From: Octopus vulgaris
Taxonomy: Eukaryota
DNA: 64,000 nucleotides
Reading direction: 5' to 3'
NCBI GenBank assembly: GCA_951406725.2
Contig: OX597818.1
Location: forward strand, 97,712,001-97,776,000
The position numbers and the translations under genes are program-made. This document shows, piece by piece, positions 754 through 43,762 of the stretch (the first letter of the stretch is position 1; the number at the start of each line of letters is the position of its first letter). The notes beneath the pieces were generated by a model. It had not been told where the DNA came from, searched no databases, and was given only the letters and a program-made list of their open reading frames with translations.

Positions 754-764
754 TTTTATATATA

Positions 765-1102
765 TTCTTTTATTCTTTTACTTGTTTCAGTCATTTGACT
801 GCAGCCATGCTGGAGCACCGCTTTTACTCGAACAAATCGATCCCAGAACTTATTGTTTGTAAGCCTAGTACTTATTCTATCGGTCTCTTTTTGCAGAACC
901 GCTAAGTGACGGGGACGTAAACACACCGACATCGGTTGTCAAGCAATGGTGGAGGGACAAACACAGACACGAATAACAAATACATACACACACACTTATA
1001 TATATATATGTGTGTGTGTATATATATATATATATATGTCTGTGTGTGTGTGTGTGTGTGTGTATACACAACATATATATATATATGTATATATATATAT
1101 AT

Positions 1103-1152
<50 letters not shown>

Positions 1153-1333
1153 TATATATATATACATATATATATATATGTTGTGTATACACACACACAC
1201 ACATATATATATACGACGGGCTTTGGTCGGCCCAAGGCTATTCTAGAAGACACTTGCCCCAGGTACCATGCCGTGGAACTGAACTCGGAACCATGTGGTT
1301 GGGAAGCAAGCTTATCTCAAGTCACTCCTGCGC
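765..1333 (-). mobile_element. tRNA-derived SINE family A with expanded internal (CA)n/(TA)n
   Basis: Matches about 10 other copies in the window; tRNA-like head, ccttgggcaagtgtctt body, tail ggtgctccagcatggc..gactgaaacaagtaaaagaataaaagaa. Confidence 0.9.
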
Positions 1334-1436
1334 GTGTATATATATATATATGTTTTATCTGTTAAAGTAAAGTTTAAAAATTACCTGTTAAAGGGTAGTT
1401 TTCTCTTGTGTTTAAATGTACACTATATTATATTTG

Positions 1437-1502
<66 letters not shown>

Positions 1503-1691
1503 TATGAATTTAAACTCTAGTATCGAATAGTGAGAGGTGAGTGCTCAGCACCGCATTGGTGGTTAAGTATTCGTTATTTGTAGACTGAAAGACAACCATT
1601 GATGGCATTGTTAATCCACAAATGAAGAATATCATTTTATAAACATACATAAATTATACATTAAATTTGATAAAAAAATATATGTATATAT

Positions 1692-1811
1692 GGTTACAGC
1701 TATATCATGCTGAATACACAGGTTCTCGTCCGATCACCGAAGTTAAGCAACGTCGATTCTAGTGAGTACTTAGATGGGTGACCGCTTGGGGAACCTAAGT
1801 GCTGTAAGCAT
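1692..1811 (+). rRNA. 5S rRNA: 5S rRNA copy, diverged, likely a retropseudogene
   Basis: 120 nt, ggttacagc...ggttctcgtccgatcaccgaagttaagcaacgtc...gatgggtgaccgcttggg...gctgtaagca. Box A and box C recognisable; terminal helix pairs 8/9; several substitutions in helices IV/V. Confidence 0.9.
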
Positions 1812-1818
1812 CTCACAC

Positions 1819-1824
1819 TTTTTT
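1819..1824 (+). terminator. Pol III terminator-like T6 run after the 5S copy
   Basis: tttttt begins 8 nt downstream of the 5S 3' end. Confidence 0.6.
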
Positions 1825-1884
1825 AGGGCGGTGTTCCAGCGTGGCCGCAGTCAATGACTGAAACAAGTAAAAGAATAAAAGAAT
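1825..1884 (+). mobile_element. Isolated SINE-A/LINE 3' tail fused to the 5S copy
   Basis: agggcggtgttccagcgtggccgcagtcaatgactgaaacaagtaaaagaataaaagaat matches the family A tail. Confidence 0.85.
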
Positions 1885-1915
1885 ATATATATATATGTGT
1901 GTGTGTGTATGTATA

Positions 1916-2333
<418 letters not shown>

Positions 2334-5047: not shown

Positions 5048-5280
5048 AAGGCGGCGAGCTGGCAGAATCGTTAGCACGCCGGGCGAAATGCTTAGCGGTA
5101 TTTCGTCTGCCGTTACGTTCTGAGTTCAAATTCCGCCGAGGTCGACTTTGCCTTTCATCCTTTCGGGGTCGATAAATTAAGAACCAGTTTCGCACTGGGG
5201 TCGATGTAATCAACTTAATCCGTTTGTCTGTCCTTGTTTGTCCCCTCTGTGTTTAGCCCCTTGTGGGTAGTAAAGAAATA
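5048..5280 (+). mobile_element. tRNA-derived SINE family B, full length
   Basis: A-box tggcagaatcgttag, B-box gagttcaaattc, central gcctttcatcctttcggggtcgataaa (Meta-domain-like); many copies in the window. Confidence 0.9.
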
Positions 5281-5464
5281 ATGTATGTATGTATGTATGT
5301 ATTCACACGCGCGCGAACACAGACACACACGCACTCGCACACATTATCTATTAATATGGTAACGTATGGTAACGAGTAAATGACATTAGGGTACTGTTAC
5401 TTTGGCAGTAAGGTTTCAATTATATGAATGGTTGTGATGCCATTTGTATTGGAGAGAGAGAGCG

Positions 5465-5503
<39 letters not shown>

Positions 5504-7357: not shown

Positions 7358-8173
7358 TCAGACGTGTCCGAGCCAGCGCAGTCGTCTCCGCACAAGGAGG
7401 GCATGCATGCTTGGCATATTAGTCTGTTCTAGGATGACTCCGTTTGGTACTCGGTCCTTCCAGGAGATGCCAAGGATTCGTCGAAGACACCGCATGTGGA
7501 AGCCGCTGAGGCGGCATTCTTGCCGGGTGTATGTTGTCCAGCTCTCGCTGCCGTAGAGTAGGGTGCTCAGCACGCAGGCTCGGTACACTGCGATCTTGGT
7601 GGTTATTGTGAGCATGTTGTTTTCCCACACTCTCCCGAAGAGCTTAGCCATGGCAGCAGCATCCTTCCCAATCCGTCTGTTCAGCTCCGGCTCGAGGGAC
7701 AGGCTGCTGGAGACCGTCGATCCCAGGTAAGTGAACTCGTTCACCACCTGCAAGCTGTGGTCGCCGACACTGATGCTGGGGACCCCTCCGACGCCCTGGC
7801 CCATGATCTCTGTCTTTTTCAGGCCGATGGTAAGGCCGAACTCTTGGCAGGCATCCGCCAGGGAGCTGACCAGCCTCTGGAGACCCGGCTGGTTGTGTGA
7901 TGTTAGGGCGGCATCGTCAGCAAAGAGGATCTCTCTGATCAGCACCTGACGGACTTTGGTCTTAGCTCTGAGGCGCGCAAGATTGAACAATCCACCATCA
8001 GCCCTGGTGTGGAGGAACACTCCGTCGTCGGACGTTCTGAAGGCATAGGACAGGACAAGGGAGAAGAAAATTCCGAAGAGCGTCGGCGCCAGAACGCAAC
8101 CCTGTTTCACTCCACTCTGGATGGGGAACGACTCCGAGGGCGATCCGTCAAACTGCAGTTCCCTGCATACCAT
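7358..8173 (-). CDS. RTE ORF part 2: RT core and thumb
   Basis: GVKQGCVLAPTLF, LFADD, FTYLG, LLYGSESW, LRWLGHV. Confidence 0.92.
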   Translation of the reverse strand: MVCRELQFDGSPSESFPIQSGVKQGCVLAPTLFGIFFSLVLSYAFRTSDDGVFLHTRADGGLFNLARLRAKTKVRQVLIREILFADDAALTSHNQPGLQRLVSSLADACQEFGLTIGLKKTEIMGQGVGGVPSISVGDHSLQVVNEFTYLGSTVSSSLSLEPELNRRIGKDAAAMAKLFGRVWENNMLTITTKIAVYRACVLSTLLYGSESWTTYTRQECRLSGFHMRCLRRILGISWKDRVPNGVILEQTNMPSMHALLVRRRLRWLGHV

Positions 8174-10226
8174 CGTGAAAGGAGGTGATGAGTTTCAGCA
8201 GTCTGGGAGGGCAACCTATCCTACCCAGGAGCGCAAACAGCCCCTCCCTGCTGACTGAGTCGAACGCCTTAGCCAGGTCGATGAAGGCCACGTATAGGGG
8301 CTGTCTCTGTTCTCGACTCTTTTCTTGAAGCTGCCTGAGTGAGATCATGTCGATTGTAGACCTCTCTGCCCTAAAGCCAGACTGAGACTCGGGGTACACA
8401 CGCTCTGCAAGCATTTGCAACCTCTTCAGGACCACCCTGGCAAATGCCTTACCGACAGTGCTGAGCAGTGATATGCCCCTGTAATTATTACAGTCGCTTC
8501 TGTCCCCTTTGTTTTTATACAGTGTGATGATGTTTGCGTCACGCATATCCTTAGGGACAGAGCCCTCCTCCCAGCACTGACAGAGCAGCTCGTGGAGATG
8601 GACCAGAAGGGCTGGCTTCCCGCACTGGATGACTTCTGCGGGGATGCCGTCTTGCCCTGGTGCCTTGCCCCGAGCGAGTGAGTCAATTGCTTTGCTCAGT
8701 TCTTCCTTTGTTGGAGGCAGGTCAAGCTCCTCCATGACAGGCAGAGCAGGAATGCCGGCGAGGGCAGACCTGGTGACCACATTCTCAGTGGAGTAGAGGT
8801 CCTGGTAATGCTCGACCCACCTCTCCATCTGCTTCGCTTGGTCCTTGATGACCTCGCCATCCCTGGACTTCAGTGGAGCAACCTTGCTGACAGTGGGCCC
8901 GAATGCTTTCTTCATCCCCTCGTACATCCCTTTCACGTTACCACTGTCAGCACAGCACTGGATGTTCTGGCATAAGTTCTGCCAGTAGATGTTGGTGCAA
9001 CGTCTGGCCGTCCTCTGGACGTCGCTTCTGGCTGTTCTCAGAGTAGCCAGGTTCTTTTCTGATGGGTCGCGCTTATAGTTGACCAGTGCTTCCCTCTTGG
9101 CAGCAATGACAGGCTCCATCTCAAGCAGGTGAGCTTCAAACCAGTCTTGATTTCTCCGCTCCCTCTTTCCTAGGGATGACATGGCTATTCTGCAAGTGGT
9201 GTCGCGAATAAGCTGCCATCTCTCCTCGATGGACGTGGCTGCGTGATCTTTAAGGGCCTCCTCCATGCGGTTGGTGAATTCTGAGCGGAGGTCGGGGTTG
9301 GTTGTCCTGGCGGTGTTGATGCGTGGGCGGCTTTTCCCTACGGGACGGCGGATTTTCTTTGAGGCCAATCGGACCCTGCTGCACACCAGAGAGTGGTCTG
9401 TATCACAGTCAGCACCATGGTAGCTGCGTGTGAGAAGCACACTGCCGAGGTGGGCTCGCCGGGTGATGACCATGTCCAGTTGGTGCCAGTGTCCGGACCT
9501 TGGGTGCCTCCATGAGACCTGGTGTTGTGGCTTAGCCATGAAGAATGTGTTGGTAACGCAGAGTTTCCGGTAAGAGCAAAGCTCCAACAGTCTCTGGCCA
9601 TTCTCATTCATCTTCCCCACGCCAAAGCGTCCAAGGCAATCTGGCCATGCCCCATGATCGGATCCCACCCTTGCGTTGAAGTCGCCCAGAAGGAAGATGG
9701 GCTCCGACCCTGGTATCTGGCTGATGGTGGCGTCGAGCTCCTCATAGAACCGGTCTTTTATTTCCTGAGGAGAGTGGAGTGTTGGGGCATAAGCACTAAT
9801 TATGTTTACCTTCCCCGTTGATGTTGCAAGGCCAAGAGTGAGGATGCGCTCTGAGCCATTTGAAGGAGGGATCGCCATGGGGAGCAAGCTGTTCCTCACG
9901 GCAAACCCCACGCCATGCTGGCGGACCTCCTCGACGGGTCTCCCCTGCCAGTAGAAGGTGTAGTCCTCCCGTAGCATGCCGTCTGCGGCGAGCCTGGTCT
10001 CTTGCAGCGCCGCTATGTCGATGTTCAGCCTTTTCAATTCGGTGTTGATGACTACTGTCTTCCTACTGTCGTTCATCTGTCGTAGATCGTCAATGATGCC
10101 AGGGCACATGGTCCTGACATTCCAGGTGGCCAGTCGCAAGACTGGTGACTGGGTATTTGTTTTTCCTTTGTTTGCTGGTGCAGGGTTTTCAGTCTGCTTT
10201 TCAGATTTTGTCCTAGCTCCAAGCAC
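8148..10226 (-). CDS. RTE ORF part 1: APE endonuclease and N-terminal RT
   Basis: LATWNVRT, IAALQETR, LGDFNARVG, DTDHSLV, KAPGQDG, NYRGISLL, QSGFR, FIDLAKAFDSV; frameshift near 8160. Confidence 0.92.
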   Translation of the reverse strand: MLGARTKSEKQTENPAPANKGKTNTQSPVLRLATWNVRTMCPGIIDDLRQMNDSRKTVVINTELKRLNIDIAALQETRLAADGMLREDYTFYWQGRPVEEVRQHGVGFAVRNSLLPMAIPPSNGSERILTLGLATSTGKVNIISAYAPTLHSPQEIKDRFYEELDATISQIPGSEPIFLLGDFNARVGSDHGAWPDCLGRFGVGKMNENGQRLLELCSYRKLCVTNTFFMAKPQHQVSWRHPRSGHWHQLDMVITRRAHLGSVLLTRSYHGADCDTDHSLVCSRVRLASKKIRRPVGKSRPRINTARTTNPDLRSEFTNRMEEALKDHAATSIEERWQLIRDTTCRIAMSSLGKRERRNQDWFEAHLLEMEPVIAAKREALVNYKRDPSEKNLATLRTARSDVQRTARRCTNIYWQNLCQNIQCCADSGNVKGMYEGMKKAFGPTVSKVAPLKSRDGEVIKDQAKQMERWVEHYQDLYSTENVVTRSALAGIPALPVMEELDLPPTKEELSKAIDSLARGKAPGQDGIPAEVIQCGKPALLVHLHELLCQCWEEGSVPKDMRDANIITLYKNKGDRSDCNNYRGISLLSTVGKAFARVVLKRLQMLAERVYPESQSGFRAERSTIDMISLRQLQEKSREQRQPLYVAFIDLAKAFDSVSREGLFALLGRIGCPPRLLKLITSFHDGMQGTAV

Positions 10227-10435
10227 CCATTGAAGCGGGCAGTCTGTGGAGGGTCAGCACCATTATTGGCCGGGGGCTGCCCAGCTTAAGGCGGGCGGTA
10301 GCTGAACCAGTTATTAATAATTATATATAATTATGCCAGTTATTAATAATTATATATATATACTTATCCTTGAGTTCTATCTTCCTGTTAGTATTAGAAA
10401 ACACACACACACACACACATTGCATACGCTGGAAG

Positions 10436-10712
10436 ACCTTCTTCTACAATTTGGCATTCAAGGGCCCACAGCTATTTAACACTTTGCCAAAACAACTGAA
10501 GGATCTTCATGGAGTGGGGTTGGATGTTTTTAAAGAAACATCTTCACCTCCTGCTATCCAAAGTCTCAGATAAACCAGTAACAAGACAGCAGACTGAAAA
10601 GAGGGCAGCAATGTTGAATTCCTGCCTTCACCAAAAGCCAGTCACATAGGATGATTACATTGGCGGTGCCCCGGCATGGCCACAACCTTAGGGCTGAAAT
10701 ATAAGAAAGAAT
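10436..10712 (+). mobile_element. 3' end of a decayed CR1/L2-group LINE
   Basis: NLAFKGPQLFNTLPKQLKDLHGVGLDVFK resembles the C-terminus of CR1/L2-group ORF2; followed by tail ggcggtgccccggcatggccaca..ctgaaa. Confidence 0.7.
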
Positions 10713-10961
10713 ACACATATACACATACACACACATATATATATAGAGAGAGACAAAGACAGAGAGAGAAAGAGAGAGGGGAAGAAAGAGTGGAGGAGAT
10801 AGGGAAGCTGAGAAAAGGAGAGAAAGACAGAAAGATAGATGAATTAGACAACTAGCTAAATAAATAGACAAATTAGTGAAGTAAAAGACACATAGCTAGA
10901 ATATGATTGAGGAAAAGGAAAAGGGAAAGTGATAGAAACAAAGGAGATAGATATGGACAGA

Positions 10962-43324: not shown

Positions 43325-43762
43325 TATCTATCTATCTATCTATCTCGCTCTCTCTCTCCAATACAAATGGCATCACAACCATTCATATAATTGAAACCTT
43401 ACTGCCAAAGTAACAGTACCCTAATGTCATTTACTCGTTACCATACGTTACCATATTAATAGATAATGTGTGCGAGTGCGTGTGTGTCTGTGTTCGCGCG
43501 CGTGTGAATACATACATACATACATACATTATTTCTTTACTACCCACAAGGGGCTAAACACAGAGGGGACAAACAAGGACAGACAAACGGATTAAGTTGA
43601 TTACATCGACCCCAGTGCGAAACTGGTTCTTAATTTATCGACCCCGAAAGGATGAAAGGCAAAGTCGACCTCGGCGGAATTTGAACTCAGAACGTAAAGG
43701 CAGACGAAATACCGCTAAACATTTCGCCCGGCGTGCTAACGATTCTGCCAGCTCGCCGCCTT
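43325..43762 (-). repeat. Inverted copy of 5048-5485 (SINE B plus unique flank)
   Basis: Near-identical; I count two substitutions and one 1-bp indel. Confidence 0.95.

Follow-up and report, generated by a model that had tools for sequence, protein, structure and literature searches.

The accessible text of Doucet et al. (2015, PMC4476161) describes U6-L2 and U6-Mon-1 chimeras in platypus, and U6-L1, U6-L2, U6-RTE and U6-AnolisSINE2 chimeras in Anolis. According to the same text, stringent LINEs leave only chimeric pseudogenes. SINE3, and composites of 5S with tRNA-SINEs, were described by Kapitonov and Jurka (2003) and Nishihara et al. (2006), as cited in the available parts of PMC4494074 and PMC4758252. 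In the former, Kojima separates SINE families from independent chimeras by their junctions and diagnostic changes.

Here, we analysed a window of 64,000 nt from the Octopus vulgaris genome (contig OX597818.1, positions 97,712,001 to 97,776,000). Within it, a 5S rRNA sequence is joined to the 3' tail of a retroposon. This kind of fusion is already known from U6 chimeras (PMC4476161, in the portion available). The window locus has the testable features of a chimeric retropseudogene. The parts are in sense order, the copy starts at +1 without gene flank, the 5S part stops at the transcript end and the junctions are independent. We consider it probable, at roughly 0.7, that the locus represents a dead retrocopy of chimeric type, combining a 5S precursor with a 58-60-nt tail. 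It would have arisen in one insertion event, when a tail-specific LINE reverse transcriptase (RT) jumped from the tail RNA onto the 5S oligo-U.

Several properties are shared with the platypus and Anolis U6 chimeras, as set out in the text seen of PMC4476161. A small RNA lies 5' of a stringent LINE, or its SINE, in the same orientation. Nearly all pseudogenes are chimeric, target duplications are short or missing and the LINE part is short. Conversely, the host here is an invertebrate, 5S, 7SL and pre-tRNA serve as acceptors besides U6, and hundreds of loci are involved. Acceptors in the octopus are mostly near full length, whereas 5' truncation prevails in platypus U6. The octopus donors include a CR1-like LINE; in that source, one CR1 case is unresolved. 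Finally, octopus junctions are fixed at SINE 5' ends or at a hairpin base, unlike those of platypus and Anolis.

In human U6/L1 and 5S/L1 chimeras, too, a single insertion links a Pol III RNA, through its oligo-U end, with a 5'-truncated retroposon, in the parts available of two reports (bioRxiv 10.1101/2025.02.02.635956; Moldovan et al. 2019, PMC6789731). However, human 5S/L1 copies are described in the former as truncated and often antisense. The octopus 5S is full length, in sense and retains its trailer. As far as those texts go, human L1 depends on poly(A) and leaves clear duplications. Here, the tail is a hairpin structure with short simple repeats, and there is no poly(A) L1 partner.

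A 5S precursor with a SINE A-type tail

The original prediction, made from the sequence alone, was of a full 5S, a short trailer and T6, followed by the tail of a SINE family (SINE A) in TA-rich flanks. Rfam and blast searches confirmed this arrangement, with a tail length of 58-60 nt (Table 1). The Rfam 5S_rRNA model matched in full (81.3 bits, E 1.1e-15) and was the only Rfam match in the window. ARAGORN found no match in the window. Over 64 nt, the tail shares 93.75% identity with a SINE copy at 821-758; eight further matches to it lie in the window. For the whole window, the output of a repeat finder was dominated by microsatellites.

Table 1. Coordinates of the fusion, its surroundings and a related LINE fragment in the window
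Feature	Position	Strand	Basis or remark
SINE A copy, closest match in the window to the chimera tail	758..1334	-	blast of tail
TA-rich flank of the insertion site	1678..1691	+	unlike upstream sequence of the 5S array; 0.40 identity in register
Full-length 5S rRNA retrocopy	1692..1810	+	12/117 aligned bases differ from majority of dispersed copies
3' trailer of the 5S precursor, TCTCACAC	1811..1818	+	sequence read
T6, copied oligo-U end of Pol III transcript	1819..1824	+	sequence read
Junction bases AG (AAA here in the SINE)	1825..1826	+	alignment to SINE
Retroposon 3' tail, SINE A type, from GGCGGTG	1827..1884	+	match to SINE copies in the window
Predicted hairpin 1	1827-1846	+	folding
Predicted hairpin 2, then GAAAC and short A-rich terminal repeats	1848-1860	+	folding
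Downstream flank, (TA)n/(TG)n	1885..1910	+	sequence read
Separate SINE A copy outside the chimera, head slightly 5'-truncated	1908..2332	-	tail-to-tail with chimera
Old 3' fragment of a related LINE, same two-hairpin tail type	10400..10715	+	47-50% amino acid identity to C-terminus of young ORF2

Positions 30-65 and 74-99 of the 5S are unchanged in the window copy. We take these to be most of the internal promoter. Pol III would terminate at T6, ahead of the tail. The locus is best seen as a dead pseudogene that, with T6 in this place, would not be transcribed as a mobile unit. From the alignment, the AG at the junction would be one templated base and one changed or added base. Since the tail type is common to the SINE and several LINEs, and just one or two upstream bases are kept, the donor cannot be named. 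The sequence TATATATG is present on both sides of the unit (1685-1692 and 1890-1897) and is possibly a short duplication or a microsatellite target.

Elements with this tail often lie tail-to-tail over a short TA tract (window 1827-2332; loci L051, L167/L168 and L193). Separately, the window has a 438-nt inverted pair with 100% identity, 38 kb apart (5048-5485 and 43325-43762).

An assembly artefact joining two repeats was weighed as an explanation. No contig among the public contigs listed bridges the T6/tail joint with 31 letters per side. However, contigs from three public runs link the upstream flank to the diverged 5' half of the 5S (1600-1745), and depth from run X1 is present in all 29 bins across the locus. 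Furthermore, hundreds of loci have the same grammar with locus-specific decay. Hence, we regard an artefact as scarcely credible. An empty site, with a joint that skips the whole unit, was not seen in the public contigs, which are short here. Contigs of a public run that we guess to be RNA cover only the tail at this locus. Similarly, junction RNA was not found in the public contigs, which are fragmented at the locus.

Dispersed 5S copies and other small RNAs

The 5S gene array lies at C4:35.21-35.34 Mb. It has 137 blast hits with a conserved upstream flank, varied short trailers and long T-run ends. In layout, the array (L112-L132, assembly G000) consists of both a 507-bp tandem unit and inverted units of several genes, and its trailers are of many different kinds. 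Identity of array flanks to the array majority has a median of 0.97 (n=124, in register). For dispersed copies with intact 5' ends (n=55) it is at most 0.43. Consistent with this, blast of positions 1201-1691 against the array matched only SINE fragments. The possibility that the window copy is a functional 5S gene was rejected; it has no array flank and 12/117 bases are changed.

Dispersed 5S copies differ from their majority by a median of 5%, and 94 of 109 begin within 15 nt of +1. The trailers TCTCACAC and TCACACAT are absent from the 137 hits in the array stretches fetched; other or unassembled arrays may hold the source. The window variant likely came from an older source gene. Other chimeras carry array-like trailers (TTCCATT, TTCCCTT, TTACCT). 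Hence, trailers appear to track source genes of differing age.

A DNA search of the genome reported 1359 5S-like candidates, 40 of which were scored. We also assembled a set of 88 dispersed copies, using an exact pattern of 5S end plus this trailer type. The pattern had no control hits and all 88 copies were read, though 3'-truncated 5S copies are missed. In 85 of the 88, the 5S continues in sense, within ~26 nt, into a recognisable retroposon. Full-length SINE heads are the partner in 61/88 copies: 55 of SINE A, 4 of SINE B and 2 of other tRNA-SINEs. Other partners are 18 GGCGG-type tails, 2 RTE-like tails and 4 internal truncations, the internal positions being assigned by eye. Partners consisting of the type-A tail only, as in the window, occur in 7 of the 88. 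Outside the fused set, one copy joins a repeat of unknown type, one has a weak match and one is followed by (TA)n.

The chance of a SINE A head starting within a given 20 nt is ~6e-4. Genome-wide, a 5S end followed after 4-18 nt by GGCGGTG was found 64 times, against 2 in the reversed control. Chance is therefore excluded for the 5S/tail arrangement, even though 2 of 30 hits fetched were not 5S. The equivalent pattern for 5S and a SINE A head gave 81 hits (control 3). Both counts are lower bounds because exact motifs are needed.

Junctions are bimodal. They fall at the 5' end of a full-length SINE or at the base of the terminal two-hairpin tail. As to whether such junctions vary, the check put forward with the original prediction, 27 of 28 tail chimeras and 41 of 61 head chimeras have distinct junctions, as for independent chimeras. 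The 5S parts are star-like. Thus, 5528 of 5886 pairs (109 copies) have no common derived non-CpG change, no pair has more than three derived changes in common and the top pairs have different partners. One spurious reverse match among 110 rows was left out of these counts. The window copy is one of many independent chimeric retrocopies, with hundreds in the genome.

These data bear on whether the locus is a minimal 5S-headed SINE, of SINE3 type, amplified from one or a few master copies. Like SINE3, as described in the sources seen in part, the chimeras begin with a 5S head that contains an internal promoter, and a SINE body or LINE tail follows. They also have a tail type common to LINEs (a young LINE and an older fragment). 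In addition, the joint lacks T4 in 46 of 81 classified 5S chimeras, which would permit read-through. However, T6 separates head from tail in the window copy, nearly all junctions are different and shared derived changes are few. In contrast to SINE3 there is no master copy and no uniform junction, the T-run is often kept, and no amplification of any 5S chimera was seen among the copies compared. For the sampled copies, a SINE3 family is largely refuted, and we consider it very improbable for the window. The preference for a chimera in the original prediction is thereby supported, as it is by the non-array flank.

Alternatively, a 5S pseudogene could have inserted first, and a truncated SINE or LINE later at its T-run, with a preference for T/TA steps or Pol III terminators. 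ATA precedes most of the solo SINE A heads displayed and is common at chimera joints, as this order of events would allow. On the other hand, unfused precursors are nearly absent (at most 3/88 for 5S and 1/11 for 7SL). Array genes have longer T-runs, yet these elements are not found downstream of them. Partners are all in sense and represent at least four tail classes. A truncated SINE beside a 5S gene, raised in the original prediction as the outcome that would overturn it, implies an array-like upstream flank and a duplication around the tail alone. The flank does not resemble the array (0.40 in register versus the median of 0.97), and partner-only duplications are not above chance (4/90 versus 3.7% expected). 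We conclude that sequential insertion is improbable.

Two results lend little weight to insertion of both parts in a single event. The chimeric unit as a whole has no clear target-site duplication: it is flanked by shared sequence of at least 7 nt in 14/90 cases, mostly microsatellite, compared with 8.2% in permutations (maximum 15.9%). Divergence of the 5S part correlates weakly with that of the SINE part (rho 0.24, p 0.11, n=45).

Other small RNAs gave a similar picture. The original prediction did not foresee this genome-wide process, nor that full-length SINEs are the commonest partners of 5S. For U6, the best 30 of 48 loci comprised 22 fused to the same partners, 5 in the array and 3 unfused. 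Thus, 22 of 25 non-array copies among those 30 are fused. A U6 junction pattern gave 272 rows, 87 on the forward strand and none in the control; reverse rows are partly listed twice. The 25 loci of 7SL include 14 genes and 11 dispersed copies. Fusion in sense was seen for 10 of these 11, in 9 cases to tail-only pieces. At L175 (G000:C1, ~10.2098 Mb, minus strand), a tRNA-Leu(CAA) that retains its intron, its trailer and T6 is joined to a LINE piece of the tail-only form. Since intron and trailer are kept, the acceptor was an unprocessed transcript.

Additional arrangements were noted. A 3' fragment of the same kind as this pre-tRNA-Leu is found at L289. An unnamed tRNA-like RNA of ~95 nt is fused to LINE tails at L306:662-762, L311 and L180. 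It has a common 5' leader, a T-run end and weak Rfam tRNA scores, and two copies are 87% alike. At L153, U6 is followed by three successive SINE A head starts, as if the 5' end had been re-copied repeatedly by the enzyme. Six U6-tail chimeras with one junction are spaced ~20 kb apart at G000:C1:132.42-132.53 Mb. These likely reflect tandem segmental duplication, not RNA amplification. The 7SL and U6 arrays are at C5:143.07-143.12 Mb and C1:139.42 Mb, respectively.

U2 was used as a Pol II control. None of 30 copies was fused in the family search, but all 30 were gene-like, which makes this a weak control. The U2 genes (L226-L255) have near-identical upstream and downstream flanks and are dispersed over C1, C2, C5, C6, C7, C9, C14 and C23, suggesting DNA-level dispersal. 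By pattern, U2 gave 3 rows and 2 independent chimeras. These have a bearing on the predicted fusion through oligo-U. That prediction stands for the window, where T6 is present, and T-runs are common at joints (lengths 0-8 in the 88 copies). A strict oligo-U requirement was rejected, given the two U2 chimeras and the 4/88 5S joints with no T-run.

Tail donors and a proposed route of fusion

SINE A is an abundant tRNA-SINE; exact matches to a 32-mer from its tail number 59,526 in the genome of 2.8 Gb. When type-A tails were sampled, 28/30 carried the SINE body (two read by eye). The type-A tail on its own appears to be uncommon outside chimeras. Type C, a sister of this tail, gave 2827 exact hits. 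It forms the 3' end of a young LINE with two ORFs, and was found at the end of 29/30 LINE loci fetched. The ORF2 frames of this LINE are open for 1038-1039 aa and encode RT and endonuclease (APE) domains. No LINE with precisely the type-A tail was found; of 150 protein hits, 30 loci were fetched, and all belong to the type-C family. Because the young LINE carries sister tail C rather than A, it is not shown to be the maker of the window copy.

From its C-terminal motifs we assume that the young LINE is CR1-like, a label that does not come from a tree. It has the APE and RT domains in ORF2, and the structured 3' tail with short repeats, by which CR1 is recognised. No named reference element is among its 120 listed homologues, and the one species-named entry is an Argonauta hians homologue (61%). 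Identity to the RTE-type ORF of the window is only 26%. The latter belongs to a minus-strand LINE at 7358-10253, presumably of the RTE clade, in which endonuclease and RT domains are split by a frameshift. By its tail type, the older LINE fragment in Table 1 represents a second donor family.

Both the window tail and the LINE tail fold as two adjacent hairpins. The second stem is predicted to vary between families yet stay paired. Folding z-scores are -0.62 for the window tail, which is not significant, and -2.23 for the LINE tail. Hence, the hairpins of the window tail are predicted structures, for which the sister tails give support. As for a possible self-cleaving ribozyme in the tail, no Rfam family matched at gathering score.

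We inspected the first 90 type-C tails on contig C1. In 55 of them the element breaks off no more than 6 nt upstream of hairpin 1 (26 at 4 nt), in 4 it does so at 7-29 nt, and in 31 it runs at least 30 nt upstream. The stop point is blurred by AT-rich flanks. Tail-only pieces are the usual truncation product of a LINE of the partner type, a point absent from the original prediction. Rfam found U6 or tRNA directly upstream in 4/90; 80 were scanned and the other 10 continue into LINE. Similarly, in 22 of 27 LINE-tail chimeras, counting once a locus listed twice, 3-4 bases of LINE sequence remain ahead of the hairpin. Extra non-T letters occur at 12 of these 27 junctions, nearly all A or G; they could have been added by the enzyme or by tailing of the acceptor RNA. 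Many joints are at a T/A step. An unrelated RTE-like tail is likewise joined at its stem base. Since SINE B and other SINEs end in different tails, several enzymes are likely to be involved.

We propose the following route for the window copy. The LINE enzyme would bind the two-hairpin tail and prime at TA-rich DNA. Synthesis of cDNA would often end just past hairpin 1, either because RNA upstream of the protein-bound tail had been trimmed or because the template was released. The enzyme might then add or use one to a few unpaired bases and take a free RNA 3' end, mostly that of a nascent Pol III transcript. Finally, the 5' end would be joined to the target, often with loss of up to 15 nt. The R2 RT is described as reaching the 5' end of one template and then jumping to a second RNA at its 3' end, with 0-2 overhanging bases aiding the jump (PMC11789487, in the text available; Bibillo and Eickbush 2004, as cited there). 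Junctions at SINE 5' ends and at the hairpin base fit such run-off jumping, provided that the tail-only donor is protected or released. As seen in that text, R2 jumping was measured in vitro with an element of the restriction-like-endonuclease type. The LINEs here are of APE type, and the jump is proposed by analogy.

RNA ligation could instead precede retrotransposition. In this case, cleavage at a U/A step immediately before hairpin 1 would leave a tail fragment with a 5'-OH, to which RtcB or a similar ligase would attach the trimmed 5S precursor, as for human U6/L1. The sharp 5' end of tail-only pieces is what a cleavage site would give, and variable U-run lengths show 3' trimming. Joints at T/A steps would also suit cleavage and ligation, and the extra A or G letters could be RNA tailing of the acceptor. 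Furthermore, ligation is established for U6/L1 in the part seen of PMC6789731, where 5S chimeras are left open. RtcB requires a 5'-OH and a cyclic phosphate (same text).

The same requirements count against ligation in the octopus. Full-length Pol III SINE RNAs are expected to have a 5' triphosphate. Ligation is thus disfavoured by the 61/88 partners that are full-length SINE heads. We know of no cyclic-phosphate 3' ends on 5S, 7SL or pre-tRNA. In addition, most LINE tail copies are tail-only insertions that have no acceptor, and so a short donor needs no ligase. RtcB ligation, on the portions available of the human work, fits U6/L1 but not the full-length SINE partners found here. Hence, ligation is unlikely, though of the rival explanations it is the one we would weigh first. 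We retain the end-to-end jump for the window copy. Its generalisation is more tentative, and we consider it somewhat less likely than not. In this wider form, tail-specific LINEs would routinely yield a discrete 55-60-nt donor and jump onto nascent Pol III RNAs, making a proto-SINE in one step in several percent of LINE tail insertions.

Proposed newborn-SINE anatomy in the octopus genome

In the literature searched, which lies outside subscription papers, Repbase and supplements, we found no cephalopod report of such chimeras. Within the same scope, neither a fixed minimal tail nor such numbers of fusions to 5S, 7SL and pre-tRNA were on record. The parts seen of PMC9115989 and PMC10886601 held nothing relevant. 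A set of four acceptor RNAs was likewise not found in the papers searched.

The acquisition of a LINE tail by a Pol III head is the founding of a SINE, and is usually inferred from a single ancient outcome. In anatomy, the chimeras described here correspond to what has been proposed for the first member of a SINE3-type family. In the octopus, hundreds of loci display the proposed founding step, with heads derived from 5S, 7SL, U6 and pre-tRNA, and the genome also has a young LINE with open ORF2. The interest lies in this genome-wide set rather than in a single dead locus. The junction pattern makes the question of jump versus ligation testable outside mammals. The sharp truncation point probably marks the smallest element that a stringent LINE recognises. 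Kept trailers record the 3' ends of precursors, and 5S gene variants now missing from the assembled array. If tail-only donors do routinely jump, the genome would preserve a dated fossil record of SINE births, hundreds to thousands in number, with all the classic heads (tRNA, 7SL and 5S). It could then be asked what lets one proto-SINE take off, and why no 5S-headed one has.
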